Below the pieces are notes generated by a model that had not been told where the DNA came from, did no database searches, and saw only the letters and a list, made by a program, of their open reading frames with translations. A DNA stretch of 64,000 nucleotides from Anolis carolinensis (lineage: Eukaryota). Positions 18,211 to 62,700 of the stretch are shown piece after piece. Each line of letters begins with the position of its first letter. Position 1 is the stretch's first letter. The position numbers and the translations under genes are program-made. The stretch is taken from assembly GCF_035594765.1 (NCBI RefSeq), contig NW_026943822.1, positions 2,198,992 through 2,262,991 of the forward strand, given 5' to 3'.

Positions 18211-19234
18211 TATACATCTATCTCAGGCCTGGGCCAACTTGGGCCTTCCCTTGAGTTGTTTTGGACTGCAACTCCCAGCATTCCTCACAGCCTCAGGCCC
18301 CTTCCTTAAGCGGCTGAGGGGGAAAAGGAAGGGGCCTGAGGCTGTGAGGAATGCTGGGAGTTGCAGTCCAAAACAACTCAAGGGAAGGCCCAAGTTGGCC
18401 CAGGCCTGATCTATAAGCTGTAGGCCTGCTTATTTTAAAGGATTTCATTCTTTTTTTTTAATGGCTGAGACAAACAAACTTCCTGCCTCTAATAATCATA
18501 ATATATAATAATATATTGTATATACATATAATATTGATAATATTATAATGTATTACAATATAATACTGATAATAATACAATTTAATAATATTAATTATAT
18601 ATTATATATTAAATGTAATATTACTAATAATATTACAATGTAATGATATAGTACAATATAGTAATTTAATGCTAGTGTTGTACTATGCTAATAATGTAAT
18701 GTATTGTATATGAATGGAATTTGTATGCCGCTCTTGAGTCCCCTTTGGGGTGAGAAGGGCAGCATATAAATGTAGTAAATAAATAAATAAATAAATAATA
18801 ACTGGCAGACTCAATATGAGGATTTAAAGATCGAACTGCAAAGACTCTGTCTTCAAAGGCAGCCCCACGTAGAGTGCATTTCAGTAATCCATTCTAGAGG
18901 TACAGTAGAGTCTCACTTATCCAACATAAACGGGCCGGCAGAAGCTTGGATAAGCAAATATCTTGGATAATAAGGAGGGATTAAGGAGAAGCCAATTAAA
19001 CATCAAATTAGGTTATGATTTTACAAATTAAGCACCCAAACATCATGTTATACAACACATTTGACAGAAAAAGTAGTTCAATAGGCTACATAGTAATTAC
19101 TGTATTTACAAATTTAGCACCAAAATATCACAATATATTGAAAACATTGACTACAAAAATGGCTTGGATAATCCAGAAACTTGGATAAGCGATGCTTGGA
19201 TAAGTGAGACTCTACTGTATTAATAAACAACGAC

Positions 19235-19269
<35 letters not shown>

Positions 19270-19506
19270 ATTATAATACAAATAATAGATACATAGCTGC
19301 TTTGACTCCTTTTTGGAGAGAAATGTGTGGTATAAATAAACAGAATAATAATACATTTTAATACTAATAATAGGCACATAACCATTTTGAGTCTCCTCCT
19401 GGAGAGAAAAATTGGGGTATAATTAAACATTAATAATAATAATAATTTTCTACAGATCATTTTTTAGGCTCCCAGAAGGATCTCCTTCCGTCTCTCTGCA
19501 CCCAGC

Positions 19507-20577
19507 ATGAACTCCAACAGCCAGGATCTCAACGGGACCCCATCTGCGGAGGCCTTCTCCTATGGGGAACGGGACTTGGTGTTCAGCGGGGTAGAGTGGC
19601 CATCCAAGGGCCTGTCCCGCTTTGATCGTGCCCTGCTGCAAGGCTGGAGGGACCGCATGGAGAAGGGCTTCTTCCGCTACCGCTTGGAGGCGTTGCCCAC
19701 CCGGGTCCTGCCAGGCGTGATGGGTCTGGTGGCACAGCTGAACGTGGAGCGCGGGGCGCGGCGGAGGGCCCCCCAGGAGATCCACAGCCTTCAACAGGCC
19801 TTCGACCCGCAGCGGTTCAACTTTACCCGCATCCGGCCAGAGGAGGTGCTCTTCGCCTTGAGGCGGGAAGGCTCCGCGGAGGAGGTTCTGGTGGTCATCA
19901 ACGTCAGCCCTTTGGAAAACGGGCATGTGCTCCTGGTGCCGGATCCGGGCTGTGAACTGCCGCAGGTGCTGACCCCGGAGGCCCTCCTTTGTGGCCTGGA
20001 GGCCGTCCTGCTCAGCACCCAGCCGGGCTTCCGCGTGGGCTTCAATAGCCTGGGGGCTTGCGCCTCCGTCAACCACCTCCATCTGCATGGCTATTACCTG
20101 GACAGGAAGCTGCCGGTGGAGACTGCCCCTTGCCAAGCCCTTCTGCCCAAAGCAGGGCTCTACTTGCTGCAGGATGGGGCCCCGGCACCTGGCTTCCTCT
20201 TCTTCTTCTCCAAAGTGGCGCAGCTGGAGGAGATGGCCAGACAAGTAGCAAAGCTGACCAGCTTCCTGGCAGAGAAAGGGGTGGCCCACAATCTCTTTGT
20301 CACCCGGGGAGCGGACCCAAATAAGGGATCTTTCTGCGCTGCATCGCGGCCGGGGCTTCGAATCATTGTCTGGCCCCGGAGGGCCTGCTTTGGGGCCAAG
20401 GAGTCCTCTGCCTTCAATGTGGCGCTCTGTGAACTGGCAGGGCATCTGCCCATCAAGACCGCCCAGGACTTTGAGACCCTGACCGAGGCCTCGGCTCTCC
20501 AGATAATTCGAGAGTGTCTCCTCTCAGATGCTGAGTTTGCCCAGCTGCAGCGAGAGCTGGTGGCCCTCTTGGGGTGA
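19507..20577 (+). CDS. GDPGP1: GDP-D-glucose phosphorylase 1 (single coding exon, 356 aa)
   Basis: HIT-like motif GFNSLGACASVNHLHLHGYY, VAQLNVERG, INVSPLENGHVLLVP, HNLFVTRG, FNVALCELAGHLP; acceptor-like AGs at 19454-55 and 19466-67 just upstream; syntenic position. Confidence 0.96.
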   Translation: MNSNSQDLNGTPSAEAFSYGERDLVFSGVEWPSKGLSRFDRALLQGWRDRMEKGFFRYRLEALPTRVLPGVMGLVAQLNVERGARRRAPQEIHSLQQAFDPQRFNFTRIRPEEVLFALRREGSAEEVLVVINVSPLENGHVLLVPDPGCELPQVLTPEALLCGLEAVLLSTQPGFRVGFNSLGACASVNHLHLHGYYLDRKLPVETAPCQALLPKAGLYLLQDGAPAPGFLFFFSKVAQLEEMARQVAKLTSFLAEKGVAHNLFVTRGADPNKGSFCAASRPGLRIIVWPRRACFGAKESSAFNVALCELAGHLPIKTAQDFETLTEASALQIIRECLLSDAEFAQLQRELVALLG

Positions 20578-20661
20578 CATCTGTGGGGCTCAAGTGTGCT
20601 GCAGGTTGGCAGGCCTCTTTCTCCGCTCTTCCCACTCAAACATGAACGCAAGGCCATGAAC

Positions 20662-20776
20662 TCAAAACTGCCTGAGACTTCCAGGCTCTGACCAAGGCCT
20701 CGGCCCTCCAAATTATTTGGGAGGGTTTCCTCTCAGACACTGAGTTTGCTCAGTTGCAGTGAGAGCTGGTGGCCCA
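20662..20776 (+). pseudogene. Decayed tandem copy of the last ~38 codons of GDPGP1 in its 3'UTR
   Basis: KTA*DFQALTKASALQIIWEGFLSDTEFAQLQ*ELVAH versus KTAQDFETLTEASALQIIRECLLSDAEFAQLQRELVAL (20453-20567). Confidence 0.85.
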
Positions 20777-20810
20777 TAAACATGTTTTAACAAAAGAAAT
20801 AAGAGATATA

Positions 20811-21152
20811 CAGTGTTCCCTCACTACTTCGCGGTTCACTTTTTGCGGATTCGCTGTTATGCGGTTTTTCAATTACTCTAAAAGACTATTATAAATCATT
20901 AAAAATTACAATTTACAGCCTAAGGAAGAGAGGAAGGAGAAGCCAAAGGGAGAGAGAAGGAGCCCAAGTGGCAACAGGAGGAAAAGGAAGTGATTTATCA
21001 ACACACAATTGGTTGATAAAGACTTAAAATAGTGTATAACTACTTAAATAATGTATAAATACTAAAATAAATATAGTGTCCCTACTTTGTGGATTTTCAC
21101 TTATTGCGAGTGGTCCTGGAACCTAACCCCAGCAATAAGTGAGGGAACACTG
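20811..21152. mobile_element. TA-flanked MITE, TIR CAGTGTTCCCTCACT (second, interrupted copy 9662-11160)
   Basis: Inverted termini with TA flanks. Confidence 0.75.
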
Positions 21153-22799
21153 TATTCTGGGAAGGCAAAGATTTTCCAAAGTGTAATTATTCTGTGTTGC
21201 TTTGACAAAGAGATTAGACGTTATTTTCATGGCTAAAGACATTTATTGAACCATCTAAACATTATAAATACACTGCAGCCTCTCTGCTGCAGATTCTTCT
21301 TGCATTGCTTTGTTAAAATTTGGTTAGAGTTAATGGAGTTCATTGTATGCCTAGGGCAAAGGTTTCTGGCCATTTGACCAAGATTGCCTTTGAATCAAAG
21401 CACAGCCTCTTTGTTCAATGAGCAGAGTAGCAGAAAGCCACAAAGTTTAAATGGTTGACTTTGTATAGAGCGTGTTTTGAAAGGTTCCAGCATTGATAAA
21501 ACGACAGAAAATAACACACACTAATAAATGTATCAAAGACCAAAAAAAAAAACCAACCAAAATGATGAGATTTAAAAAAGAAATCTGCTTACAAAAACAG
21601 GCTCAAAAGTAGTTTTGGTAAATCAAATCCAGGTTGAAGTTATAAGTCCAATAAAGTGAGGAGTAAAATGGGATTTCCTTCTGTCTTGTGGTGAAATAAA
21701 ATAAGAGAAATCCCATGCGGTCAGATAGGACATCATTCAAAAGAGTAAAACGAACATGAACCCAGAAACCCCTTTTGCCAGATAGTTCAATATTCAGGAG
21801 TTCTGGGGCAGCGTGGTTCACACATTTATTTATGTAATGCTGCTCAGTAACCTGTGAAATATTTATTTATTTATTACAGTATTTATATCCCGCCCTTCTC
21901 ACCCAATAAGGGACTCGGGGCAGCTTACAATAAAAGCACATACAGTAGGGTCTCCAACATTCGCTTATCCAACATTCTGGATTATCCAACGCATTTCTGT
22001 AGTCAATGTTTTCAATACATAGTGATATTTTGGTGTTAAATTCGTAAATACAGTAATTACTACATAGCATTACTGCATATTGAACTACTTTTTCTCTCAA
22101 ATTTGTTGTATAACATGATGTTTTGGTGCTTAATTTGTAAAATCATAACCAAATTTGATGTTTAATAGACTTTTCCTTGATCCCTCCTTATTATCCAACA
22201 TATTTGCTTATCCAACGTTCTGCCGGCCCATTTATTTATTTATTTATTTATTTGCTACATTTATATCCCGCTCTTCTCACCCCGGAGGGGACTCAGAGCG
22301 GCTTACAAATCAAAGGTACATACAATGTATTATTAGCATAGTACAATATAAGCATTAAATTACTATATTGTACTATATCATTATATGGTAATATCATTAT
22401 TAATATTACATTTAATATATAACATATAATTAATATTATTTAATAATGAATAATATAATATAACATATAATTAATATTATTTATGTTGGATAAGTGAGAC
22501 TCTGCTGTATATAAAAATAATACAATACATTGTGAATCAATTAAAATTAAATACATCAAACATTCATAAAAATACACTTATAAATATACTTATAAATATA
22601 CCCTCCCCTTACCCATATTACCCCATATATATAGTTAGAAACCTTTCCCTGATATCCATAGAGAGTAGATCCCTTTCCTACCCTTCCTAACCTTACCTTA
22701 TCTACCTACCTAACCATACTTACCTCACTCCTCCCTTTAGACACATGACTGTAACAAAATTTCAATAAAAATTATTTATAAAAAAATAAATATACAGAT

Positions 22800-23141
22800 A
22801 AGTGAATGTTGCAATTAACCACCTTAATTAGCATTGAATGGCCCCCAGGCAGTAAGCATCCTGACCTTGAAGATGCAAGGCCATTCAGTGCTAATCAAGG
22901 TGGCCAACTGCAACATTCACACCTGTGTCAAACAGACAAAGAACCCTTTCTCCCACCCTGGGCATCATTCCACAGTATATGAACCCCACTTGCCTCGTTT
23001 CCAACAGACCTCACAACCTCTGAGGATGCCTGCCATAGATGCAGGCAAAACGTCAGGAGAGAATGCTTCTGGAACATGGCCATACAGCCAGGAAAACTCA
23101 CAGCAACCAGTGATCCCAGCCATGAAAGCCTTCGACAACAC
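22800..23141 (+). mobile_element. Penelope-like element terminal fragment with hammerhead motif (GAAA mutated to AAAA)
   Basis: CTGAGGA-T-GCCTGC-loop-GCAGGC-AAAACGTC at 23017-23057. Confidence 0.65.
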
Positions 23142-23287
23142 AACTCTTATTATTACTATCATGCTGGGTGGCCATCTGGGGAGGGCTTTGATTGTGCTTT
23201 TATTTTTTATTTTTTTATTTATTTACAGCATTTATATTCCGCCCTTCTCACCCCAAAGGATATTCATGGCAGATCACATCTTCTTCT

Positions 23288-23742
23288 TCTATATATATAA
23301 AAGCGTGATGGCATCACGGCGACCCACAAAACAACAAAACTACAGGCCCCCCAACCTCGAAATTTGACAACACAACCCATCATCCACGCCTCTAGGTTGA
23401 TACAACAAAAAGAAAAGAAAAATAAAGTCCTAATTTGAGAGAGAGGAATAATTGCTTTTATCCAATTGCTGCCAGTTTGAAGGCTAAGCTCCTCCAACTT
23501 GGTCTCCTAGCAACCCAATAAAAAATAATAAAAAACACTAAAAATTAATACAATAAAATACTATAATAACAGAAAATAACTAAAATAATACAAGAAAATA
23601 ATAAAATATAATAAATAAAAATATAACTTACAACAAAAAATTAATTAAAAAATGCAAATAACGTCAAATAAAAATTACACAACAATTTTTAACCAATACC
23701 ACCACCACTTTGCCACAGCAACGCGTGGCCGGGCGCAGCTAG
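23288..23742 (+). mobile_element. Non-autonomous Helitron
   Basis: 5' TCTATATATATAAAA; 3' GCCAC..GTGGC hairpin then CTAG|T. Confidence 0.8.
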
Positions 23743-24019
23743 TTACACATATAGGCAAACATTCAATGCCTTTTAACATAGAACAAAGACAAGACAAACA
23801 TAGGCTCCGAGCGGGCCTCGAACTCATGACCTCCTGGTCAGAGTGATTCATTGCAGCTGGCTTGCTCTCCAGCCTGCGCCACAGCCCGGGCCTAAATCGA
23901 GGCAGGAAGGGGTTAGTCTAGATGGCCCCTGGGGGTCTCTTCAACCTGAACATCTTTCCTTTGGCTTCTCAACTGGATCCCTGGCCTGAATGTCAACAGA
24001 GCAGATTCCACCAACGTAA

Positions 24020-24200
24020 CGCACGCACGCACGCACGTTCGCTCTCGCGCCTCATAAGGAGGCCAATGGCGTCACAGTACTCGGGAGGGGGCGGGGCCGC
24101 GCTGTCGCCATGGAGACCGCGTCGGGCCTCAAGGAGGCCTCTAGGCCCAGGCGCCATCGCCGCGGCCGCCTCAGGGGAAGAAGCAGCCTTGGCGACCGGT
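24020..24200 (+). promoter_or_regulatory. TTLL13 CpG promoter and putative first exon: CCAAT (24063), CGTCA half-CRE, GC box, X-box GTCGCCATGGAGAC (24104-24117), donor GTGAGG at 24199
   Basis: Motifs read directly; only CpG island upstream of TTLL13 coding exon 1. Confidence 0.65.
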
Positions 24201-24418
24201 GAGGGGCCTTTTGCCGGCCAGACGTGCCCTCTTCGCCCAGTTCACAGTCTGGCTCAACACTGGGCCTATAATCCCAGGATCCGCTTATCCCAGTGTAGAC
24301 TCCTCAAGCAGATAATCTGGGGTCAAATCCTAGGACATAGGCCCCATAAAATCCAGACCTGGATTATATGGCAGTGCAGATTTATATACTCCAGATTATC
24401 AAAGCAGGCAATGTAAAT

Positions 24419-24551
24419 CAGGCCTGGGCAAGCTTCGGCCCTCCAGGTGTTTTGGACTTCAACTCCCACAATTCCTAACAGCCGAAGGCTGTTAGGAATT
24501 GTGGGAGTTGAAGTCCAAAACACCTGGAGGGCCGAAGCTTGCCCAGGCCTG
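24419..24551. mobile_element. Fully palindromic hAT-type MITE (CAGGCCTGGGC TIR); family copies 5224-5337, 18224-18408, 41715-41867, 47376-47577, 59917-60118
   Basis: 65-bp perfect arms with 3-nt loop; the 18224 copy has a 6/8 match 8-bp TSD. Confidence 0.8.
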
Positions 24552-25471
24552 ATCCACACTGCCTGCTTTGATAATCTGGATTATCTATTTATTTATTTGC
24601 GACATTTATATCCCGCCCTTCTCACCCCGAAGGGGACTCAGGGCAGTTTACAAGTATATATACATATACAATATATTGTATTATACAACTATATTGCAAT
24701 ATTATTAGTAATATTGCATGTAATATAAATATACAATTATAATTGTGAATTACAATTACAGTAGAGTCTCGCTTATCCAAGCTTCTGGATTATCCAAGCC
24801 ATTTCTGTAGTCAATGTTTTCAATATATCGTGATATTTTGGTGCTAAATTCATAAATACAGTAATTACAATATAACATTACTGCATATTGAACTACTTTT
24901 TCTATCAAATTTGTTGTACTCAATTTGTAAAATCATAACCTAAGTTGATGTTCAATAGGCATTTCCTTAATCCCTCCTTATTATCCAACATATTCGCTTA
25001 TCCAACATTTTGCCGGCCCGTTTATGTTGGATAAGTGAGACTCTACTGTACATATACAATATATTATATTATACGACTACATTGCAATATTATTAGTAAT
25101 ATTGCATGTAATATAAATATACAATTATAATAGTGAATTACAATTACAGTAGAGTCTCACTTATCCAAGCCTCGCTTATCCAAGCTTCTGGATTATCCAA
25201 GCCATTTTTGTAGTCAATGTTTTCAAAATATAATGATATTTTGGTCCTAAATTCGTAAATACAGTATTTACAATATAACATTACTGCGTATTAAACTACT
25301 TTTTCTGTCAAATTTGTTGTATAACATGATGTTTTGGTGCTTAATTTGTAAAATCATAACCTAATTTGATGTTTAATAGGCTTTTCCTTAATCCCTCCTT
25401 ATTATCCAAGATATTCGCTTATCCAAGCTTCTGCCAGCCCGTTTATGTTGGATAAGTGAGACTCTACAGTA

Positions 25472-29996: not shown

Positions 29997-30038
<42 letters not shown>

Positions 30039-34651: not shown

Positions 34652-34702
<51 letters not shown>

Positions 34703-40242: not shown

Positions 40243-42437
40243 ATGGGGCCTGCGGGGCGGCAGCTGCTTCTGGGCCTGCGGGGGTTGGCTCGGTTGGGGA
40301 CGAGGCTGGAAGCAAGCGGGGATCCCGAGCTGGACCTGGAGAGGTAAGCAAGGCGGGGAGCAATTCGTTGCTTGGAGTTTTCCGGGCTGTGTGGTCGTGT
40401 TCCAGAAGCATTCTCTCCTGACGTTTCTCCGTTTAAATAAATAAAATAAATACAGTAGAGTCTCACTTATCCAAGCCTCGCTTATCCACGCCTCTGGATT
40501 ATCCAAGCCATTTTTGTAGTCAATGTTTTCAATATATCGTGATATTTTGGTGCTAAATTCGTAAATACAGTAATTACTACATAGCATTACTGCGTATTGA
40601 ACTACTTTTTCTGTCAAATTTGTTGTATAACATGAAGTTTTGGTGCTTAATTTGTAAAATCATAACCTCATTTGATGTTTAATAGGCTTTTCCTTAATCC
40701 CTCCTTATTATCCAAGATATTCACTTATCCAAGCTTTTGCCGTCCCATGTAGCTTGGATAAGTGAGACTCTACTGTAAATAAAACATTTACGCTGGCCTC
40801 CAACTGACAAGAGTTCTTCCCTCACCCTGGACTTCCCACAGATATATATAAACCTTCCCTGCTTAGTTTCTCCATACCTCACAACCTCTGAGGATGCCTG
40901 CCATAGATGTGGGCGAAACGTCAGGAGAGAATACTTCTAGAACATGGCCACACAGCCCGGAAAACATACAACAATCCTGTGATCCCGGCCATGAAAGCCT
41001 TCGACAACACTTCCTTCTTTGCTTCCATACTGGGCTTCTTTCTCATGCAGATAAACAGCTTCGCTCTCACAGAGCCTCATCTCAAATGAGACTCACACAG
41101 AAGTTTCACACAGTAACTTCACACACAGCAGCCTTCACACTGGGGCTTCACACATGAAGCTTTACACACCAGGCCTTCTCACACACTGAGGCTTCCTCAT
41201 ACTAGGCGTTCTTCATACTGAGGCGTTCTCACACTGCTCAGGATGGCACTAGCTTTGGCCCATTATTTCTCACAGGTTCGTCCTACTTTCCTCAGGATGA
41301 CACTAACTTTGGCCTACTAACTCTAACAGGCTTCAGCCTACTCATTCTCGGGACGACACTAGTTTTGGCCCACTAACTAACTGGCTTCGGCCTACTCACT
41401 CTCCTCAGGATGACGCTAGCTTTGGCCCACTAACTCTAACAGGCTTCGGCCTACTCACTCTCCTCAGGACGACACTAGCTTTGGCCCACTAACTCTAACA
41501 GGCTTCGGCCTACTCACTCCTCAGAGCGACGCTAGCTTATTTAACCCGTTCAGTGCTTGACTCACATTTTTGTAATTAAAAATACCTAGTTAATTTTTAA
41601 TATTTCTGATGATATAGATGTATATTTTTGGTTGGTGTTACACTTAAGAAATGTACCTGTTCCCTGTTCAATGTCCCTTGAATACAAATTCAGCAGAAGG
41701 ATAAGCCTACAGAGCAGGTCTGGGCCAATTGGGCCCTCCGGGTGTTTTAGACTTCGTCTCCCACCATTCCAAACAGCCTCAGGCCCCTTCCTTTTCCCCC
41801 TCAGCCGCTTAGGAATGGTGGGAGTCGAAGTCCAAAACACCTGGAGGGCCCAAGTTGGCCCAGGCCTTCTGCAGAGCGTCTCTGTTTCGTGGCCCGCATA
41901 CCCACGGCCTCCTTGGGGGCCCCTCCTTCCTGCAGAACGCTGCGGAGCCAGGCGAAGGCGGTGCGGGAGCAGCGGATCAAGAGGCAGATGGAGCCACGGG
42001 GACCCCCCCAGCGCACCCTGAGCCGCCAGGCCATGGAGCAGATCCGGTGAGGAGCCATTACAGTGCGGGATCGGGCATCGGAAGTGAGCCTGGCTGAAGC
42101 TGAGCCCCCCTTTGAACCCTTCCCTTTCAGCTTCCTTTCGCGGGAGGCGCCGGAGGAGTGGCCCGTGGAGCGCCTGGCCCGCGGCTTCCAGGTGCCGCCT
42201 GACGTCGTCCGCCGCGTCCTCCGCAGCCGCTTCCATCCCTCGCCTTCGCGCGCCACCAAACAGGATGCCGTGGTTGCAGCCGCCATCACCGGGAAGAGCG
42301 AGGGGCCCACGCGCAAGGAGCAGCAGAGGGGCAGGGAGGTTTTTGACGCCACGGGGAACTTTCTCTACCGCATCCCTGAAGCGAGCCCCCCACCCCTGGT
42401 GGCCCTTGGTCCCGGGAGAAAGGCCCGTCCCAAGTAG
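40243..42437 (+). CDS. NGRN: Neugrin (mitochondrial 16S rRNA module protein), 172 aa. Exons 40243-40343, 41936-42046, 42131-42437
   Basis: TLRSQAKAVREQRIKRQME..PPQRTLSRQAMEQIR/FLSREAPEEWPVERLARGFQVPPDVVRRVLRSRF..KQD and C-terminal QRGREVFDATGNFLYRI match neugrin motifs; Arg/Leu-rich presequence-like N-terminus. Confidence 0.9.
40885..40925 (+). ncRNA. Minimal type I hammerhead ribozyme motif in a Penelope-like repeat (NGRN intron 1)
   Basis: CCT-CTGAGGA-T-GCCTGC-CATAGAT-GTGGGC-GAAAC-GTC-AGG: catalytic boxes, stem I CCT/AGG, stem II, palindromic loopless stem III ACGT. Confidence 0.7.
41235..41540. repeat. About 57-60-bp tandem repeat (about 5 copies) in NGRN intron 1; related copies at 44255-44335
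   Basis: GACACTAGCTTTGGCCCACTAACTCTAACAGGCTTCGGCCTACTC units. Confidence 0.8.
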
Positions 42438-47169: not shown

Positions 47170-47360
47170 TGTATCTAAACCAATCAAGAGAGTTTTTCGC
47201 GCCAAACTAGTCAAACTGTCAGCTTTGTGCAAATGATCTGGGCGCATGCGCAGTGGCGCCCCTAGGCCTCAAAGCGGCGCTAATTGCGTGAGCGGCGTCA
47301 ACAGAGAGAGAGAAGGGCAGGGAAAGAGATTCAAACTGAAGATTAGGAAGAACTAAAGGT
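47170..47360 (+). promoter_or_regulatory. Putative HDDC3 promoter and non-coding first exon: CCAAT 47180, E2F-like TTTCGCGCC 47195-47203, NRF1 GCGCATGCGC 47242-47251, donor AG/GTAAGA at 47359
   Basis: Motifs read directly; HDDC3 coding exon 1 is preceded by an acceptor (TTTCTAG, 51978). Confidence 0.6.
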
Positions 47361-47865
47361 AAGAAGAGCTTGCTCTAGGCCTGGGTAAACTTGGGCCCTC
47401 CCTTCAGGTGTTTTGGACTCCAACTCCCAGCATGCCTCACAGCCTCGGGCCCCTTCCTTTTCCCCCTCAGCCGCTTAAGCGGCTGAGGGGGAAAAGGAAA
47501 GGGCCCGAGGCTGTGAGGCATGCTGGGAGTTGGAGTCCAAAACACCTGAAGGGCGGGCCCAAGTTTGCCCAGGCCTGGCCTACACTCTGTAACACTCTTC
47601 GATTTTTGGTAATTATAAATACCATTTCCTAATTGGTTCTATCATCAAAACGTGGGGGGAAAGTTTATTAATTTGCGCAAACTTCGTTTTGGCGGGAGGG
47701 ACATTCATCCAGTCTCACCTGGCCATCTGTTGGGAGGGATCAGATGGTGTCCTTCCTTCCAGACGGGGGTTGGGCTGGGTGGCCTTTTTTGGAGGGGGTC
47801 GGATTCCTATCAAATACAGCAAAATGGCTGAGCCAATATAAATGTACTTTCCAAATTGCCAACTA

Positions 47866-49820
47866 CAGTAGAGTCTCGCTTATCCAATGTTCTGGATTAT
47901 CCAACGCATTTTTGTAGTCAATGTTTTCAATACATCGTGATATTTTGGTACTAAATTCGTAAATACAGTACAGTAGAGTCTCACTTATCCAACGTTCTGG
48001 ATTATCCAACGCATTTTTGTAGTCAATGTTTTCAATACATCATGATATTTTGGTACTAAATTCGTAAATACAGTACAGTAGAGTCTCACTTATCCAACGT
48101 TCTGGATTATCCAACACATTTTTGTAGTCAATGTTTACAATACATCGTGATATTTTGGTACTAAATTCGTAAATACAGTACAGTAGAGTCTCACTTATCC
48201 AACGTTCTGGATTATCCAACGCATTTTTGTAGTCAATGTTTTCAATACATCGTGATATTTTGGTACTAAATTCGTAAATACAGTACAGTAGAGTCTCACT
48301 TATCCAACGTTCTGGATTATCCAACGCATTTTTGTAGTCAATGTTTTCAATACATCATGATATTTTGGTACTAAATTCGTAAATACAGTACAGTAGAGTC
48401 TCACTTATCCAACGTTCTGGATTATCCAACACATTTTTGTAGTCAATGTTTACAATACATCGTGATATTTTGGTACTAAATTCGTAAATACAGTACAGTA
48501 GAGTCTCACTTATCCAACGTTCTGGATTATCCAACGCATTTTTGTAGTCAATGTTTTCAATACATCGTGATATTTTGGTGCTAAATTCGTAAATACAGTA
48601 CAGTAGAGTCTCACTTATCCAACGTTCTGGATTATCCAACGCATTTTTGTAGTCAATGTTTTCAATACATCGTGATATTTTGGTGCTAAATTCGTAAATA
48701 CAGTACAGTAGAGTCTCACTTATCCAACGTTCTGGATTATCCAACGCATTTTTGTAGTCAATGTTTTCAATACATCGTGATATTTTGGTGCTAAGTTCGT
48801 AAATACAGTACAGTAGAGTCTCACTTATCCAACATTCGCTTAGCCGACGTTCTGGATTATCCAACGCATTTTTGTAGTCAGTGTTTTCAATACATCGTGA
48901 TATTTTGGTGCTAAATTCGTAAATACAGTACAGTAGAGTCCCACTTATCCAACATTCGCTTAGCCAACGTTCTGGATTATCCAACGCATTTTTGTAGTCA
49001 ATGTTTACAATACATCGTGATATTTTGGTGCTAAATTTGTAAATACAGTACAGTAGAGTCTCACTTATCCAACATTCGCTTAGCCAATGTTCTGGATTAT
49101 CCAACACATTTTTGTAGTCAATGTTTACAATACATCGTGATATTTTGGTGCTAAATTCGTAAATACAGTACAGTAGAGTCTCACTTATCCAACATTCGCT
49201 TAGCCAATGTTCTGGATTATCCAACGCATTTTTGTAGTCAGTGTTTTCAATACATCGTGATATTTTGGTGCTAAATTCGTAAATATAGTACAGTAGAGTC
49301 TCACTTATCCAACATTCGCTTAGCCAATGTTCTGGATTATCCAATGCTTTTTTGTAGTCAATGTTTTCAATACATCATGATATTTTGGTGCTAAATTCGT
49401 AAATACAGTAATTACTACATAGCATTAATGTGTAATGAACTACTTTTTCTGTCAAATTTGTTGTATAACATGATGTTTTGGTTCTTAATTTGTAAAATCA
49501 TAACCTAATTTGATGTTTAATAGGCTTTTCCTTAATCTCTCCTTATTATCCAACATATTCGCTTATCCAACATTCTGCCGACCCATTTACATTGGATAAA
49601 CGAGACTCTACTGTAATTACTATGTAGCATTACTGCATATTAAACTACTTTTTCTGTCAAATTTGTTGTATAACATGGTGTTTTGATGCTTAATTTGTAA
49701 AATCATAATGTAATTTTATGTTTAATAGGCTTTTTCCTTAATCCCTCCTTATTATCCAACATTTTCGCTTATCCAATGTTCTGCCGGCCTGTTTATGTTG
49801 GATAAGTGAGACTCTACTGT
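47866..49820. repeat. MITE-derived tandem array: 9 x 105 bp + 4 x 120 bp left-arm units, then a full MITE and the host right arm
   Basis: Unit starts 47866, 47971, 48076 ... 48706, 48811, 48931, 49051, 49171, 49291. Confidence 0.92.
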
Positions 49821-49824
49821 ATTA

Positions 49825-50490: not shown

Positions 50491-50493
50491 GTT

Positions 50494-50538
<45 letters not shown>

Positions 50539-50815
50539 CTTTATTTATACCCCGCCACCATCTCCCCAACGGGGACTCGGGGCGGCTAACATGGGGCCAT
50601 GCCCAGAGCAATACAATATAATAAAATATAAAAACAACATATCATAACACAATTAAAACAATACAATAGATAATAATATACATTACATCAAGAAGTCAAA
50701 GAAATAGTAAAAACAAGGGTGGGCCGCATGAACACAGAGATAAAAACTCGGGGTGAGAGAGACAAAGGAATACACCACAGGGGACAGGGACATATGAAAG
50801 TGGAACAGTCTAGAG

Positions 50816-51989: not shown

Positions 51990-54900
51990 ATGTCGGGGAT
52001 GTCGGAAGCCGTGCAGCTGCTAGACGCTGCCCACTTTGCGGCCTGCAAGCACTCTAGCCAGCGGCGCAAGGACCCCGAGTGCACACCGTACATCAACCAC
52101 CCCATCGGTCAGTGAATCCCTGGGCACGTGCAGAGGCCAGGGCGGGAGGGAGAGGCCACTTTCTCCCCTTAGAAACACACCTGCCCCTCTCCCATTCACC
52201 ACCTCGGGGAGGCAGGGACCATAATTGGGTTCTTAACATCAGTAAGGCAGGAGCCATGGTGGGTTAAATGCTTGTGCCGGCTGAACTGCTAACCTGAAGG
52301 TTGGGTCGCCGACCTGAAGGTTGCTGGTTCGAATCCGCAAGATGGGGTGAGCTTCTGTCAGCTCTAGCTTGCGGGGACATGAGAGAAGCCTCCCAGCAGT
52401 ACATCTGGGCTTGCAGTGTGTTCTCAAGTTGCTTCTTATATGAAAAAAAATCTATAAGACCAAGGAGCTGATAGTAGATTACAGAAGAAATAGATCGGAA
52501 ATTCTGCCTTTGGTTTTAAATGGAAATAGAGTGGCACAGGTGGCCAGTTTTACCTGCACTACTCTTAAGTTCCCTGGTGCTGCATTGTTACGGAAGACCT
52601 GACCTGGGGCCCAGCAGGGATTATATTATTATCTGACTTTCTTAAGCAGGCATGGGAAAACCGGCCCTCCCACCAGGAGTTAAGGAACCAACAAATGAAT
52701 GCAAAATTGTCAGTGTCTTTCTAACACTGTGTTATAGAGAGTGTTCTAACCTACTGCATCTGCATATAGTTTTCCGGTTGCACAGAGGCTATAGATATGA
52801 AGGCACTCCTGCCAAGAGAATGATAGCTGCCCTCTCCCCTCTTTGGAAGAATTTTCTCATCCCCACTGCCTTACGAAAGCTCAGAATATTCTTAAGGATC
52901 CATCTCACCCTGGATATTCTTTTTTTTTAAATTATTTCCATCTGGCAGATAGTATTAGATGATAAAAACGCATAAACTGAGAGAGAGCTTTTATCCCATA
53001 GTTGTGACTACATTGAACTCTGTGGTTTCACACTGACACAACATTAAGGGTTATGCAATAGTTATGAGATTGTGAAAGGATGGATGCTTTGTTTTGTAAT
53101 TCTACATATATAATGTATATTGGGGGTGGCATTTAATTTAATTGTACAATGTACAATGACAATAAAGTTATTCTATTCTGTTATTCTATTCAGGTGTGGC
53201 CCAGATCCTGGCACAGGAGGGTGGCATCACAGACCTCGCGGTGTTGCAGGTGAGTCAGGGCAGCCCCATGGTTCCGGCATTCAAGCTGCAGCCAAAGCCA
53301 TTCAAGCTATAAGGCTGAGCACACACATAGAGCACCAGTTCCCTCAAAGGCAGGGATGTACCGCCAGCCAATGTCCTCGATTCCTGCTAGAGGTCTTAAG
53401 CCCCTTCTACACTGCCCTATATCCCAGGGCTTGATCCTAGATTATCTGTTTCGAACTGGATTATATGAGTCTACACTGGCAGATATCTGGAATAAGCAGA
53501 TAACCTGGGATCAGATCCCGCGATATAGGGCAGTGTATATCCAACCTCAGTGTCCTAGGGTTAGGATCTGCCATCCTCATTATAGTCATGCCATTGCAGG
53601 CAGTCCCTGAATTACAAACATCCAATTTACAAATAAGTCCTAGTCCCCTTCTGCACTGCCATATAATCCAGATTATCAAATCAGATAATTCACGTCATCC
53701 GCTTTGAACTGGATTGTGAGTCTACACTGCCATAGAACCCAGTTCAAAGCAGATAATCTGGATTTTATCTGGCAGTATAGAAGGGGCTCTAGTTAAGAAC
53801 AGAGTGAAACAAGAAGTGAGAGGAATCTGCTCCTCGGAAGGGAAATCCACCCCTTTAAAAGTTATTATTATGGGGGAAAGATGTCTCCACTGAAGCTTTA
53901 TCTCCAATCCTTGTTCCCACAACAAGCCAAATTTTTCAAAATCCAATAATAACAGCAACTGAAAGTAATGTGAAATCTTTTGAACAGGGGCACAGACAGC
54001 AAAACAAATACCACAGATGTGTTGCCTTTCCGTATGCGATCCAAAGCTAAAAGATATATATATATATATTTGACTGGAGTTACGCTTAAAAAATGTCCCT
54101 GTTCCAATTTGCATACAAATCCACTTTAAAAGTAAACCTACAGAACCAATCTTGTTCGTAACTTGGGGACTAACTGTATTGCATATTGATACTTCAGACT
54201 TAATATATAAATAAATATATCCATCAGTAGTTGTGTTGCTATGTGCTCTTGATAAAGGTATACTTTGCTAATGGGAATATAGGTATATTCTAAAAACCAA
54301 TAGCTGAAGCTAAGTGCTAGTACAATTAGCTAATTGCAGCCCAAGGTTTTTCTCATGTGAAAGATGGGAATGAGATAAGGTTTGAATTACTGGTACTTGA
54401 TGAATGAAAGAGAAGACTGCAAAAGAGTCTAATGGGCCAGGCTGTTGGACGAAGGAAATGTAATGCACACCAAATGTTCAAATGTAAAACTTATACACCT
54501 TTTAATGCCACAAAAGCTATCAGACCTAACAATAACCACTGGTGACAGCCTGTGCATGAACTTTTTGAATGAAGGGGGTTTGTTTATCTCTGAGGCAGGA
54601 GCAAAGGTCTGCAGTTGACACTCAGGCAGTGCTCTTGGGGCCATCTAGTGCCTGTCTCCCCGCAGGCTGCCCTTCTGCACGACACGGTCGAAGACACGGA
54701 AACCACCTTCTCAGAGATCGAGGAGCGCTTTGGCACGGAGGTCAGGCGCATGGTGGAGGAAGTGACCGATGACAAGGCATTGCCCAGGATGGAACGCAAG
54801 CGCCTGCAGATCGAGCACGCAGCTGGTGCGAGCCCGGGCGCCAGACTCATCAAGCTAGCCGACAAGCTCTACAACCTGCGAGACCTGAACCGCTGCACTC

Positions 54901-56797
54901 CCCAAGGTCCGTCTTCTGGCCGTTTGCCCCTCCAATCTATCCAGATTTCTATCCTGTTGCATCCTAATGTGTTTCAAAAAGCAGAATACTGTTAGGTACT
55001 TTTAACTTAGCATATTTACTCAGTGTACAAGCAGCTCCGGTTCTTAGCAACTCTGGACTTTGCCCGATTTGAACAGCAGAAAGGCAGACAGCAGAAGTAT
55101 ACTTCTTAAAACAGGAAGGCTCTATCTCTTGTACAGTAATACAAAACACAAGCAGTCTGTACAAAGCACAATTGCACAACAAATTCTTTCACATCTCTCT
55201 TTCCCCCAACAAAACAGCAATGATACCAATCTACAGCAACACCAAGGTAAAATGTTACATTTGCTGTCCAAATTCATACAAATATTAACCAATCGACTAT
55301 TACACTAAATTATTATATTATCATCCCTGCTGCCTGGGATTATGTACAGTAGAGTCTCACTTATCCAAGCTAAATGGGCCAGCAGAAGCTTGGATAAGCG
55401 AATATCTTGGATAATAAGGAGGGATTAAGGAAAAGCCTATTAAACATCAAATTAGGTTATGATTTTACAAATTAAGCACCAAAATATCATGTTATACAAC
55501 AAATTTGACAGAAAAAGTAGTTCAATACGCAGTAATGTTATGTTGTAATTTCTGTATTTACGAATTTTGCACCAAAATATCACGATATATTGAAAACATT
55601 GACTACAAAAATGGCTTGGATTATCCAGAAGCTTGGATAAGCGAGGCTTGGATATGTGAGACTCTACTGTACATAGTTGCATGGCAGGGATTTGGACTAG
55701 ATGGCCCATGTGATCTCTTCCAACTCTATTATTCTATGACTCTTCATGGTTACATCAGCCACTGAGATTTTTCGAGTCCAGGGGTTCTCAAGCTTTTTCA
55801 GCTGCAGAGCCCTTTGTGAAGCAAAAGTTTCTTGTGGCACCCCAAGAAATGTTTTTTTATATTATATTATATATAAAATACCTATGTATCAGGCAGTGGC
55901 AAACTTTTTTTTTACTATTAGAGACTTAATAGTATATCAGTGGAAGACCCCAGGGACCATCCAGTCCAACCCTCTTCTGCCTTGCAGGAAAAACACAATC
56001 AAAGCACCCCCTAAGCTGTGGGAGGGAAATAGGGTTTTGGAAGCAAGCAATGTGAGGGGGAAAGTATCTGGAAGGTGAAGAAAAAGGGCTTTTGGCAGTG
56101 AGGGGGGGGGGGGAGGAGCAGAAAAGAGGAGGGAAAGCTTGGAGGGGGAGGAAGGAGGAGGACACTGTGGAGCCCCTAAGTATGCTTCGTGGAGCCCACG
56201 GGACCACTGCTTTAGTCATTCTGACTTCATAATTAATCATGAATATACTTAATTTATATACAAATTGCAACAAATACATCCTCAAAGTGGAATGCAGCAA
56301 TATGAAATGAAGCTTCTCCAAATGGGAACTGTGTGGAATTTTGAAAGTAGGGTTCAGGGAACGATATTGCAATGGCAGCCCAAGAAGGGAGTTCTCAAGA
56401 TCAGCTGTGCAATTTTGGATAGCATCTCTTGGACAGTAGTTGCTAAAGAAGCCAGCTTTCTGGAAGTTGAAGTCCAAAACACCTTTCCTGTGACTCCTTG
56501 GATCACAGGGAAAGAAAATGTATCTTTCCAGCTGAAGCTTTAGCCTCTTTAGTCTCTGGCTCTGAGAAGCTCCGTGCCTCCTAGCCATGAGACAGAGTCG
56601 CTCTGACAGGAGACACATGACAAACACGTTTGTCACTTTCTGACTGCGAGGTCTCTCTTTGGACAGGTTGGTCTGAAAAGCGGGTCCAGGATTACTTTCT
56701 CTGGGCCTCGGAGGTGGTGAAGGGCTTGCGTGGGACTCATCCGGCCTTGGAGGAGAAGCTGTGGCTGCTCTTTAGGGAGCGAGGGATTCCAGAGTGA
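51990..56797 (+). CDS. HDDC3: HD-domain protein 3 / MESH1 (ppGpp hydrolase homolog, NADPH phosphatase), 181 aa. Exons 51990-52107, 53194-53249, 54666-54906, 56667-56797
   Basis: [59 protein letters not shown]; phase-consistent, 546 nt. Confidence 0.96.
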
Positions 56798-58399
56798 CGC
56801 TGCAGAACATCCTGATGGGAGATCAGAAAGGAGGAGAATCAAGAAATAAAGGAGGGATATAATCACAAGGAGGAGGAGGAGGACCTTCAATTATACTTCC
56901 GCAAATGATTCTGGCAAAAAGTTAGTTCACCATATACTCCTCCTTATCTTGTGCCATTCACTGCATTGAATTTTCTGCTTACTTGCAAAAAAAAAAAAAA
57001 GCCCCACTTGGCTTACAACTTTTCCATCTTTGAGAGCAAGTGCCTAAATCACAGCCTGGAAGAGAAGAGACTGGATCCAGGCCCTTCGTTTATTCTTACC
57101 ACTGTGCAGGTCATGTGGTAGCTGAAATTCATAATTACCTTTGAACAGTGCAAGGGACGCGGCCGTTTGTTGCCACCAAATTATATTATTTGTTTCCTTA
57201 CTGCCACAAATAATTATGTACTTTGCTGCCACCATTTATAACATGTATGTGCCACCGCTCTCCATGGCCAGCACGCAGAAAGACCCAAAGATGGGGGGAA
57301 ACTCTGTTTTGCAGAGCGATGGTTAAATAAGCCACCTCTTTATAATGTTTATCAGGAAGACAAACACTTGAAGTGAAGTAAAACAGAATTATGCTGTTTA
57401 TTTGTACTTGAACAGAAATGTGTATTGGTTTCAATAAAATAACAGGCTTTGCTTTAACAGTGAATGGTTCTTAAACAGGAGTTTCTTGAAAATGGATTGT
57501 TCCCTCATGAAGGAAATATTAACAGACTTTTCAAACCTTAGAGACCTCTTCCCAGGGGCTCCAGACTTAAGCACTCTATCTCTTTAGAGGCTCACTACAG
57601 TTCTTAGCACTTCTCCCTGAAGGCTAATCAGTTTTCTCTCAAAGAGGTTTGTCTCAAACAGTTCCTAAAAACCTTGCTTTCTTCCTTCTTAAAATTATCT
57701 TCCTAGCTGTGCAAACACCAAAAACCCTATCTACCAATTCTCTGACTGAATAGCTCCAACTGTCTATTTGGCTCCGCCTATCTCCGGTTGCTAAGCAACT
57801 CCCAATTTTACCAACCAATCAGGCCGCACTTCCTCACTTGAAGCTGCCTGATGACTCCTCCCCCTTCTTGGCTTAGTTTTTCCAAGCAAGTCCTTGAATT
57901 GCCTCTGCACACCAACCCTGCAAGGTTAGCCAATCCGTTACAAATGGTATCAGGCAGTGTTGTATTTCAGTTTCAATGTTGACTTTTATGGAGAGGTGGC
58001 TGCCAAGGGAGCGGAAATAAATGATCAACATTTTATAATATTACAACTGCATTTCTGGCATTGCAGAAGGATTGGCTGGAGCCTTTTGCTGGAAGAGCAC
58101 TTGGGTTTTCTTGATGTTCAATGAGAAGCTGAGCTTCTCGTATGCTTCTGCAAAGCTGTTTAGAGTGGCCTATAGGTCTTCTGAATGCGCAGACTACGTT
58201 TATTTATTTATTTATTTGCTACATTTATATGCTGCCCTTCTCACCCCGAAGGGGACTCAGAGCGGCTTACAAATTAAATTTACATACAAAATTATATTAT
58301 TAGCATATTACAATACTGGCAATAAATTACTATATTGTACTATATCAATATAATGTAATATTAATATTATTATTATTATTAAATATGTAAAATTATATA

Positions 58400-59256
58400 T
58401 CTATATATATATACCCTGTTTCCCCTAAAATAAGACATCCCCAGAAAATAAGACCTAGTAGAGGTTTTGCTGAATTGCTAAATATAAGGCCTCCCCCGAA
58501 AATAAGACCTAGCAAAGTTTTTGTTTGGAAGTCTGCCCAACGAACAGAACAGCAGAGCATGCAGGATCGGTAAATGTACGTACCATAGAGTGTTGTACAT
58601 GGAAATATTGGTAGTAACAAGAAATTCTTGATAGGATTCACAGTTTGTCTGGTTATGCTGGTTTGTAATTACAACTACTGTACAGTATATAATAAATGTT
58701 CATTTTTTTGTTCTACAATAAATGTGAATTCTTCTTCATGGAAAAATAAGACATCCCCTGAAAATAAGACCTAGCGCAGGAGCAAAAATTAATATAAGAC
58801 ACTGTCTTATTTTCGGGGAAACACGGTAAAAGAGTGATGGCATCACGGCGACCCACAAAACAACAAAACTACAGGCCCCCCAACCTCGAAATTGACGACA
58901 CAACCCATCATCCATGGCTCTAGGTTGATACAACAAAAAGAAAAGAAAAATAAAGTCCTAATTAGAGAGAGAAGAATAATTGCTTTTATCCAATTGCTGC
59001 CATTAGCCCCTCCAACTTGGTCTCCTAGCAACCCAATAAAAAATAATAAAAAACACTAAAAAATTAATACAATAAAATACCATAATAACAAAAAATAACT
59101 AAACATTATACAAGAAAATAATAAAATATAATAAAAAGATAACTTACAATAAAATTAATTAAAAAATACAAATAACATCAAATAAAAATTACACAACAAT
59201 TTTTAACCAATACCACCACCACTTTGCCACAGCAACGCGTGGCCGGGCACAGCTAG
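58400..59256 (+). mobile_element. Non-autonomous Helitron with a Tigger-like MITE (58414-58826) inserted in its 5' TATA run
   Basis: Near-identical to 23288-23742 once the MITE is removed. Confidence 0.8.
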
Positions 59257-59285
59257 TGTAAAATAAAATACGTAAAATTATATAT

Positions 59286-59470
59286 ACGTTATCATCGGCA
59301 TACTGGAGTTCTATAACAGATGATGTTGTGACCTTGGTTTTGGCTTTCAATCTGTTGAGGTTGAATAGCTTGCCATCGGTCCGATAGATGATTTCCACTC
59401 CTGTGGGAAGCTTCCCATCAACAAGATTAAATATCATAGCAATGAAAATGGAAAATAAAGTTGGGGCAAT
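59286..59470 (-). mobile_element. RTE-clade LINE RT fragment
   Basis: APTLFSIF..YRTDGKLFNLNRLKAKTKV..ELQYADD. Confidence 0.7.
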
Positions 59471-59559
59471 AACAACAACATGAAGTGTGAACTGAATCAT
59501 TAAAAAAAGGGACACAGTTGCATTTAGATAACATTGACCTCAAGGGGCCTCCGTAGAAC

Positions 59560-59752
59560 CCCAAACAGCGAAGGAAGCAGACAGCGCAGGCGCAGATCGC
59601 ACCCTCAGCATACCCGGATGTGGCCCATTTCACAACATAACGGAAAGTGGGTGCTCCAGAAAGCCGGTCCGGTGGATCCCGCGACCGTTGCGGATGGTTC
59701 CGGGCAGGACGACGTTCCGGGCCATTTCCTCGCTGCTGCTTCCGCCTCCGCG
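59560..59752 (+). promoter_or_regulatory. VPS33B CpG promoter/5'UTR (NRF1-like GCGCAGGCGC, ETS-like CCGGATGT and CGGAAAGT)
   Basis: CpG-rich stretch directly upstream of the ATG. Confidence 0.55.
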
Positions 59753-62700
59753 ATGGCCTCCCCCGGGCACCGGGACGCGCCGGAGCTGCCGGATTTCGGC
59801 CTCCTGAAGCGCCTGGCCCGGGACCAGCTGGTCTACCTCCTGGAGCAGGTGAGGAGAAAGGGAAAGGATCACCCCATTGGTTTGGGGGTGATGATTTGCA
59901 TTGCCTCCGTCTAGAGCAGGCCTGGGCCAACTTGGGCCTTCCCTTGAGTTGTTTTGGACTCCAACTCCCAGCATTCCTCACAGCCTCAGGCCCCTTCCTT
60001 TTCCCCCTCAGCCGCTTAAGCGGCTGAGGGGGAAAAGGAAAGGGCCTGAGGCTGTGAGGAATGCTGGGAGTTGGAGTCCAAAACACCTGGAGGGAGGGCC
60101 GAAGTTGGCCCAGGCCTGGTATTTTGGACTTCAACTCCCACAATTCCTAACAGCCCGCTGGTTGTTAATTGAAGTCCAAAACCCCTGGAGGAGGAGGGCC
60201 CAAGCTGGCCCAGGTCTGATTTATGACATAAGTACCCTTTGATTTAGGACGCTTTTACTCTGCCATATAAAATCCAGATTATTATTATTTACTACATTTA
60301 TATGCCGCTCTTCTCACTCCGAAGGGGACTCAGAGCGGCTTACGAATCAAGTGAACATACAATATATTATTAGCATAGCATTAAATTACTATATTGTACT
60401 ATATCATTACATACCGTGTTTCCCCGAAAATAAGACAGTGTCTTATATTAATTTTTGCTCCCAAAGATGCTCTAGGTCTTATTTTCAGGGGATGTCTTAT
60501 TTTTCCATGAAAAAGAATTCACATTTATTGTTCAACAAAAAAAAAGAACATTTATTATACAGTAGAGTCTCACTTATCCAACATAAACGGGCCGGCAGAA
60601 GCTTGGATAAGCAAATATCTTGGATAATAAGGAGGGATTGAGAAGAAGCCTATTAAACATCAAATTAGGTTATTATTTTACAAATTAAGCACCTAAACAT
60701 CATGTTATACAACAAATTTGACAGAAAAAGTAGTCCAATACACAGTAATGTTATGTTGTAATTACTGTATTTATGAATTAAGCACCAAAATATCACGATA
60801 TATTGAAAACATGGACTACAAAAATGGCTTGGATAATCCAGAGGCTTGGATAAGCGAAGCTTGGATTAGTGAGACTCTACTGTAGTTCAATACATAGCAA
60901 TGTTATGTTGTAATTACTGTATTTATGAATTTAGCACCAAAATATCACGATATATTGGAAACATTGACTACAAAAATGGCTTGGATTATCCAGAAGCTTG
61001 GATAAGTGAGACTCTACTGTATTAGCATAGTACAATATAAGCATTAAATTACTATATTGTACTATATCATTATATACCGTGTTTCCCCGAAAATAAGACA
61101 GTGTCTTATATTAATTTTTGCTCCCAAAGATGCTCTAGGTCTTATTTTCAGGGGATGTCTTATTTTTCCATGAAAAAGAATTCACATTTATTGTTGAACA
61201 AAATAAATGAACATTTATTATACAGTAGAGTCTCACTTATCCAACGTAAATGGGCCGGCAGAATGTTGGATAAGCGAATATGTTGGATAATATGTTGGAT
61301 AATATGTTGGATAATACGTTGGATAAGCGAATATGTTGGATATATTGAAAACATTGACTACAAAAATGGCTTGGATTATCCAGAAGCTTGGATAAGTGAG
61401 GCTTGGATAAGTGAGACCCTACTGTATTAGCATAGTACAATATAAGCATTAAATTACTATATTGTACTATATCATTATATTACGTGTTTCTCCGAAAATA
61501 AGACAGTGTCTTATATTAATTTTTGCTCCCAAAGATGCTCTAGGTCTTATTTTCAGGGGATGTCTTATTTTTCCATGAAAAAGAATTCACATTTATTGTT
61601 GAACAAAAAAAATGAACATTTATTATAGACTGTATAGTAGTTGTCATCACAAACCAGCATAACCAGACAAACTAAATCCTATCAAGAATTTCTTGTTACT
61701 ACCACTATTTCCCTGTACAACAATCTATGGTATGTACATTTACCGATCCTGCATGCTCTGGTGTTCTGTTCATTGGGCATGCTTCCAAACAAAAACTTTG
61801 CTAGGTCTTACTTTTGGGGGAGGCCTTATATTTAGCAATTCAGCAAAACTTCTACTAGGTCTTATTTTCTGGGGATGTCTTATTTTAGGGGAAACAGGGT
61901 AGTAATATTATTAGTAATAATAATATTACTATTATCATTATCATTATTAATTATTATTATTAGGAGAGCCCTGGTGGCGAAATGCGTTAAAGCGCTGAGC
62001 TGCTGAACTTGCAGACCGAAAGGTCCCAGGTTCAAACCCCAGGAGCGGCGTGAGCGGCCGCTGTTAGCTCCAGCTTCTGCCAACCTAGCAGTTCGAAAAC
62101 ATGCCAATGTGAGTAGATCAATAGGTACCACTCCGGTGGGAAAGTAATGGCGCTCCATGCAGTCATGGTGGCCACATGACCTTGGAGGTGTCTACGGACA
62201 ATGCTGGCTCTTTGGCTTAGAAATGGAGATGAGCACCAACCCCCAGAGTGTGAGTAGATCAATAGGTACCGCTCTGGCGGGAAGGTAACGGCGCTCCATG
62301 CAGTCATGCCAGTGGCCACATGACCTTGGAGGTGTCTACGGACAACGCTGGCTCTTCAGCTTAGAAATGGAGATGACCACCAACCCCCAGAGTCAGACAT
62401 GACTGGACTTAACATCAGGGAAACCTTATCCTGGCCTCACCTCTGACTTTCTCCCCCACAGCTCCCTGGAAAGAAGGACCTTTTCATCGAGGCCGACCTC
62501 ATGAGCCCCTTGGACCGCATCGCCAACGTCTCCATCCTCAAGGTGGTTGTTTATTATGTTTTCCTCATAACTAAAGGAGAGTGCAGTGCAGGAGATGGAG
62601 CTACTCATTTTCCGGTGTCTTTTCTTTGCATAGCAACACGAAGTGGACAAGCTCTACAAAGTGGAGAGCAAGCCAGCCCACAGCAACAGTGACCAGTGAG

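Follow-up and report, generated by a model that had tools for sequence, protein, structure and literature searches.

The window and its hairpin elements

This work concerns a family of palindromic MITEs (miniature inverted-repeat transposable elements) in the green anole, Anolis carolinensis, as found in a stretch of 64,000 nucleotides (hereafter the window; positions 2,198,992 to 2,262,991 of contig NW_026943822.1, assembly GCF_035594765.1) and in DNA sampled outside it. The contig that holds the window is 25.8 Mb long, in a genome of 1.85 Gb. Protein-family matches within the window comprise a TTL-family gene, Neugrin (NGRN), HD_4, minus-strand EF-hand exons and a weak match to Sema4. GDPGP1 was identified, an HDDC3/MESH1 coding exon lies at 51990, and the Sec1 matches downstream of 59753 are weak; the support for these gene calls is at the level of families. 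The names TTLL13, CIB1, SEMA4B and VPS33B go beyond these family matches and are assumed here from synteny.

Six complete copies of the hairpin element, 114-202 nt long and palindromic from end to end, are present at the places where a preliminary description of this DNA had put them; a seventh, truncated copy had been overlooked. Two measures of nearness to an island are used, a distance of no more than 300 nt from a called CpG island and the presence of at least 16 CpG in a 400-nt flank. The copies, to which no strand is assigned, are the following.

5224-5337: short copy that has lost the motif by deletion, 513 nt ahead of the last, CpG-rich exon of the semaphorin gene; not island-adjacent
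18224-18408: long-class copy at the downstream edge of the CpG island shared by CIB1 and GDPGP1
24419-24551: short-class copy of 133 nt, 220 nt after the putative TTLL13 exon-1 donor
41715-41868: internally deleted copy in NGRN intron 1, with a degenerate motif and one mismatch in its target-site duplication (TSD)
47376-47577: long-class copy 17 nt after the 47359 donor, upstream of HDDC3, at a place without a standard CpG island
59917-60118: long-class copy; the donor of VPS33B exon 1 lies 68 nt before it
60119-60218: seventh, truncated copy, abutting the preceding one

The CpG-rich stretches beside them are these.

17801..18275: CpG island, putative bidirectional promoter of the minus-strand EF-hand gene and GDPGP1
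23851..24300, plus strand: CpG island with the putative first exon of the TTL-family gene
41876..42425, plus strand: CpG island spanning NGRN exons 2-3
47240..47358, plus strand: weak CpG stretch ending at a donor; the putative exon end is backed by one contig
59501..59925, plus strand: CpG island with the coding first exon (59753-59848) of the Sec1-family gene

Donor-like GT dinucleotides at 18203 (with a second candidate at 18155), 24199, 47359 and 59849 precede the respective copies by 21 (69), 220, 17 and 68 nt, and the NGRN exon-2 acceptor is found about 67 nt downstream of the 41715 copy; the distances to donors and to this acceptor given in the preliminary description hold on the sequence. 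The same description had set five copies at the edge of a 5' CpG island, in all five plus-strand genes. The island edge stands for three of the five, and falls for the NGRN copy, which adjoins the exon 2-3 island 1,371 nt past the exon-1 donor, and for the 47376 copy, which has 13-14 CpG in 400 nt and its nearest called island 4,950 nt away; SEMA4B is a sixth plus-strand gene. The 18224 copy illustrates the island edge, with 34 CpG in its left 400 nt and 1 in its right, and its TSD has two mismatches. The hairpin formed by the 47376 copy is nearly perfect (z -29). At the 24419 copy, the flanks (24390-24580) are mutual inverted repeats of about 30 nt with 4 mismatches, and the hairpin extends past the element; inverted duplication of flanks was rejected as a general property, being true of this copy only.

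Nature of the element

Judged by its sequence, the element is an old, non-autonomous hAT MITE of the Buster/Charlie type, short, non-coding, bounded by terminal inverted repeats (TIRs) and present in high copy number. It occurs in two length classes, of about 134 nt and about 200 nt. The target is an 8-bp NTCTAGAN with a TA centre, and the same NTCTAGAN profile is obtained by symmetrising the TSDs of the 20 of 57 copies that have at most two mismatches. TSDs with at most one mismatch are retained by 11 of 56 copies, as compared with 1.4% in the null, and by 17 of 25 complete copies sampled by a fixed flank. They are also retained by 15 of 58 island copies, which indicates that the transposase put the island copies there. 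The terminal motif YARNG described for hAT elements (PMC3014272) is present, the ends reading CAGGC. Exact matches across the genome, 16,244 to the arm and 11,367 to the end, imply at least about 8,000 copies.

The TIR is absent from the named A. carolinensis hAT families of Table 1 in PMC3014272, and the window has no Rfam match at gathering thresholds. Searches of the openly accessible literature listed no paper on this MITE family, nor any on MITEs of squamates at CpG islands; the element may well already carry a Repbase or Dfam name. As a lead to a partner transposase, an element of about 480 nt at another locus (L290:1509-1990) opens with this TIR and has an unrelated, HT2-like interior. 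Pieces of the MITE also seed tandem arrays with periods of about 152-266 nt (L021, L025, L027, L029, L033 and L100, on contig C1), and several of those near the start of C1 have one common unit.

Position of the family relative to CpG islands

The position of the family was assessed in contiguous stretches of microchromosomes beyond the window, 800 kb in all, in which copies were found with a profile hidden Markov model; three ambiguous hits, none of them island-adjacent, and hits less than 400 nt from region ends were dropped. A first sample of 19 loci taken by BLAST rank was replaced by pattern-ordered and contiguous samples to avoid rank bias. Among the 41 copies, 20 lie within 300 nt of an island, as against permutation means of 4.8 and 3.7 and a maximum of 13 in 2,000 runs, which rules out chance from high copy number. 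By the other measure, 21 copies have at least 16 CpG in a 400-nt flank, a density reached at 14.6% of random sites and 9.1% of target-like sites. Seen from the islands, 17 of the 60 called in the 800 kb have a copy. Short and fragmentary copies are likewise enriched (11/29, p = 0.002). The promoter position claimed from the window thus exceeds chance in independent DNA, and comparison with other MITEs and with shuffled positions bears out the enrichment at CpG islands.

The enrichment is specific to the family. Its ends lie near islands in 36 of 82 cases, as compared with 3/40 for HT2 and N4, 0/16 for HT3, N3 and N1, and 12/236 for TcMar-N7; HT1N1, with 2/4, is too rare to judge. A general preference of hAT elements for islands is thus not seen for HT2/N4, HT3, N3 or N1, and hAT-N1 was island-adjacent in 0/27 cases in the macrochromosome comparison and 0/7 in a second sample. 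That the flanking islands might be one common repeat was also rejected: an all-versus-all BLAST of the flanks of 34 loci, inspected by eye, gave matches only among other repeats and tandem arrays.

Within the family, the density of island-adjacent copies varies with the form of the element and the region. On macrochromosomes, forms with C at TIR position 6 or 12 are island-adjacent in 9/17 cases. The C/C TIR form is so in 12/27. Of 56 loci with a rare internal form, which has three representatives in the window and 223 arm matches, 36 are island-adjacent. The start of C1 has only 2-3 island-adjacent copies among 15 loci, with a similar result for 16-17 common-type loci. A survey of 71 island-adjacent copies found strict donors facing the copy alone in 25, facing the other way alone in 9, in both directions in 5 and in neither in 32; CpG density falls across the element from about 4.5 to less than 1 per 50 nt. 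GC skew failed to orient the islands in this survey, being positive in 39/71. The family is concentrated at CpG-island edges, and its position tracks the ends of the element, not the motif; the window is well supplied with examples of a pattern that is real and specific to the family, but that holds for only a minority of its copies.

Arm symmetry and GC-biased changes

Since each copy is a palindrome, its two arms can be compared with each other. In 123 complete copies, 58 island-adjacent and 65 other, the arms differ by 5.8% at islands and by 11.4% elsewhere (p = 5e-5), while divergence from the consensus is equal in the two groups. The result holds at four cut-offs and for transversions alone. 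In a subset of 67 copies, picked neither by internal allele nor by BLAST rank and including, where complete, 13 loci deliberately oversampled for TIR C alleles, the values are 5.6% and 12.0%.

Private changes mirrored on both arms are biased toward G and C at islands, with 30 weak-to-strong against 15 strong-to-weak, as compared with 29:84 for one-arm changes there and 10:17 for mirrored changes away from islands; in the 67-copy subset the ratios are 17:8 for mirrored and 12:32 for one-arm changes. The weak-to-strong excess expected of GC-biased gene conversion is therefore present in the mirrored island changes. Mirrored changes found in three copies or fewer are over-represented at islands (14/44 vs 6/75, p = 0.002). 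TSDs are no better preserved at islands (2.67 mismatches) than elsewhere (2.26), so that the island copies are not simply young. Island-edge copies with half the arm difference, GC-biased mirrored changes and TSDs no better than others are the new observation here, and the three together point to in-place, GC-biased conversion between the arms.

In both length classes, C at TIR positions 6 and 12 is characteristic of island copies (11/13 vs 3/28; 8/8 vs 9/18); among these, the two alleles are in linkage equilibrium (19/11/24/15). Each creates a perfect small local palindrome in the TIR, which suggests a templated origin. A prediction written beforehand held (5/13 vs 2/27, p = 0.027). The sample behind it includes five copies with one left flank, 14-31 kb apart at 19.08-19.17 Mb of contig C2 in assembly G000 (L397-L399 and two further places), which are not independent and probably represent a tandemly duplicated gene cluster.

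The change may extend to the base beyond the arm. In flank-anchored copies, the TSD base that touches the arm departs toward palindromy 21 times, as against 5 at the mirror position (4 vs 3 in hAT-N1), and at islands it also shifts toward G/C (56 vs 40 of 80). Methylation alone was rejected as the cause of arm symmetry, as CpG is absent from the consensus arm and transversions follow the same pattern; broad GC context was rejected as well, the far-side flank GC being 0.419 vs 0.410.

A rare arm variant has been observed in island copies close to one another, namely on both arms of the 18224 copy, on the left arm only of the 59917 copy, and in a copy on C13 about 81 kb to the right of the window; it also occurs at L013 and L100. 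Its presence among neighbours, and on a single arm of 59917, suggests local hopping or copy-to-copy conversion.

The ZNF143/THAP11-like motif

The preliminary description had also held that each arm carries a motif resembling the ZNF143/THAP11 composite of promoters. The motif is present at 18263, 24454, 47415 and 59956, as stated, and lacking in the 5224 and 41715 copies; its reading as a ZNF143/THAP11 site draws no support from the sequence. The resemblance itself is real: the four named motifs match 15-17 of the 25 bases of the SBS2 probe (PMC3627581). All four miss an A of ACTACA, so none has the ACTACAnnTCCCA core, and an A is found at that position in 12 of the 134 arms of the 67 copies. 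A few island fragments do have a perfect ACTACA core.

In the 67 copies, no island enrichment is seen for alleles by which the motif would be improved (T41A 3/21 vs 4/46; T55G 0/21 vs 2/46; C51G 2/21 vs 7/46), which gives no sign of selection for it, and A-to-C changes of the TIR outside the motif are enriched (14/21 vs 5/46 and 14/21 vs 10/46). The exception is A59C (6/21 vs 2/46), which is a GC gain, is limited to long copies and copies an adjacent direct repeat. Outside the family, perfect ACTACAnnTCCCA cores occur 81 times in the 800 kb, 4 of them near an island where 8.3% of the DNA is near one, and 14 of 126 are near an island in a second count. These cores, about one per 10 kb, lie for the most part in other repeats, to judge by eye, and in several contexts that look unrelated. 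hAT-N1 has a similar internal stretch and shows no island enrichment. A lizard ZNF143 matrix built from 14 sites mixes repeats and is unreliable. The site recognised by ZNF143 is 29 bases long and degenerate, and the factor can work immediately downstream of the transcription start site (TSS) (PMC11754675), so that binding is conceivable, and THAP11 can bind the TTCCCA half (PMC3627581). On this evidence, the ZNF143-like stretch would be a passenger here, as in many other MITEs of lizards.

Other features of the window

Read evidence covers the 47359 donor. Of four runs, one (X3, whose RNA status is guessed; none of the run records is registered as RNA) gave a contig with a genome match that ends exactly at 47358, at the predicted donor; the other three runs gave no contig ending there. 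The stretch 47240..47358 contains a palindrome that we take to be NRF1-like. The VPS33B exon used as a query against the PDB returned nothing useful. On the minus strand, the CIB1-like first coding exon seems, by eye, to end at a GC rather than a GT donor (17945-17955).

Tandem arrays with periods of 105 and 120 nt (47860-49500), which derive from one end of the TcMar-N7 MITE, lie downstream of the 47359 donor and before the coding exon of HDDC3. Minisatellites occur at 15854-16999 (94 nt) and 2688-3069 (53-59 nt). The other repeats of the window have TIRs that match those tabulated for A. carolinensis (PMC3014272).

Origin of the island-edge copies

On balance, we consider it somewhat probable that the transposase favoured open promoter chromatin and that island-edge copies have since been rewritten in place by GC-biased arm-to-arm conversion. 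The scheme starts from the observed hAT ends, the 8-bp NTCTAGAN target and the thousands of copies, and from the family-specific enrichment at island edges, biased to the donor (intron-1) side. The transposase would have inserted at TA-centred targets in the AT-richer island margins, and selection would have purged hits in core promoters and first exons. The symmetric arms, the GC-biased mirrored changes and the unimproved TSDs seen at islands could then result from hairpin or heteroduplex repair during frequent double-strand break repair at promoter hotspots, in a genome that would lack PRDM9. The green anole is described as lacking PRDM9, and such species as recombining near CpG islands (bioRxiv 2021.06.08.447603, preprint). 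We infer both the targeting and the link to hotspots; promoter recombination hotspots are plausibly the site of the conversion.

Several observations weigh against this explanation. Most copies are not at islands: a weighted estimate gives about 14% on macrochromosomes, where the commonest TIR form is island-adjacent in 3/53. One 100-kb region of the microchromosome sample, C15, holds 9 of 17 islands, and 11 of the 21 copies counted as island-adjacent are found in it; it was chosen near earlier BLAST hits, and 10 of 28 copies are island-adjacent when it is left out. The islands themselves were called from sequence only. As for arm symmetry, the unselected long copies taken alone give 7.0% vs 10.3% (n = 8 vs 18, p = 0.44), singleton changes are too few for a test of GC bias, and the prediction written beforehand weakens at a stricter cut-off (4/13 vs 2/27, p = 0.075). 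In copies not picked by flank, inverted matching of the first flank base is only 0.34, with 0.28 expected. The rare variant, at position 30, occurs in 7 copies, all at islands, of which three are nearby on the window's contig, one of them carrying it on a single arm; this suggests that copy-to-copy exchange or a sub-lineage also contributes, and the rewriting would then not be purely in place. A search with PF05699 identified no partner transposase among the 150 candidates scored of 1,206, nearly all of one high-copy family and considered without their ends. The loss of PRDM9 rests on a preprint, and our SSXRD profile search had no positive control. Finally, the enrichment may reflect retention rather than insertion bias.

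Retention is the core of one alternative, in which insertion was unbiased and island copies were kept recognisable by arm-to-arm repair or were less deleted. We find it unlikely: equal divergence from the consensus implies similar detectability of the two groups, fragments are enriched too, and recombining regions are generally known to lose repeats. It does account for the symmetry of island copies, and it fits an old family with eroded TSDs and the lack of bias in younger sibling families (divergences from PMC3014272, Table 1). Under a second alternative, promoters were targeted by a separate subfamily or burst whose ends are C-rich, and symmetry and GC bias were inherited from its master copies; this would explain why the rare internal form, the C/C TIR form and the position-30 variant are so frequent at islands. 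It is nevertheless decidedly unlikely, as the C alleles occur unlinked and in both length classes, the TSDs do not mark island copies as younger, and mirrored changes found in at most three copies are over-represented there.

The preliminary description had proposed that the paired motifs are bound by ZNF143/THAP11, which would either anchor the element at promoters or turn it into a regulatory cassette that is retained. The match to the SBS2 probe, the perfect cores in some island fragments, the degeneracy of the ZNF143 site, the ability of THAP11 to bind a half site and the enrichment of A59C, which would fit an SBS consensus, speak for it; the key improving alleles are not enriched, better cores in other DNA show no island bias, hAT-N1 is not enriched despite its similar stretch, and A59C has the other explanations given above. 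We regard this as the least probable of the accounts. Returning to conversion at favoured insertion sites, a stronger form of it is possible but doubtful: a true promoter-homing MITE that would mark about a quarter of microchromosome CpG-island promoters, each copy recording meiotic break repair by GC-biased self-conversion, with symmetry as a map of hotspots; some copies may set the downstream border of the island or bind ZNF143/THAP11.

Relation to known systems and significance

As a rule, fixed transposons are scarce in the CpG-island promoters of vertebrates. The rice mPing MITE and the Drosophila P element accumulate near gene 5' ends, in other superfamilies and hosts than the lizard MITE, and we know of no arm conversion in either.

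Among A. carolinensis elements, hAT-HT2N, hAT-N4 and hAT-N1_AC have the same 8-bp NTCTAGAN-type target, YARNG end and short non-coding body, and hAT-N1_AC, 135 nt long with long TIRs, has an internal stretch in common with this element (PMC3014272). In contrast to these named families, the element is palindromic over its whole length, and it is the sole island-enriched family among those tested. TcBuster, also a hAT element with an nnnTAnnn 8-bp target, prefers TSSs and CpG islands; its preference is a weak experimental one in human cells (PMC3499496), whereas that of the lizard element is a fixed genomic pattern, about fourfold on microchromosomes. MLT1J is likewise a mobile element with an SBS2-like motif, but its binding was demonstrated by chromatin immunoprecipitation, mostly outside promoters (PMC3627581), whereas the lizard element is a DNA transposon with a degenerate core known from sequence alone. 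In Xenopus, another non-mammalian tetrapod, hAT and other MITEs, domesticated at enhancers of the liver, are enriched at open chromatin; those sites are distal, tissue-specific and supported by the assay for transposase-accessible chromatin (PMC12676858), whereas the lizard element sits at CpG-island edges.

Of the 60 islands sampled, 17 have this family at their edge, where siblings with the same target do not sit; a reptile here offers a natural instance of targeting to promoters or of retention at them. ZNF143/THAP11-like cores are so common in lizard repeats that a motif match alone means little, and the unusual feature of the element is likely the GC-biased self-repair of its island copies rather than its ZNF143-like motif. 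With its paired arms, every copy contains its own control, so that gene conversion and GC bias can be read locus by locus; the location of recombination in a PRDM9-less lizard thereby becomes testable from sequence. If the promoter-homing form of the explanation were true, arm symmetry would provide a sequence-only map of hotspots in a reptile without PRDM9.

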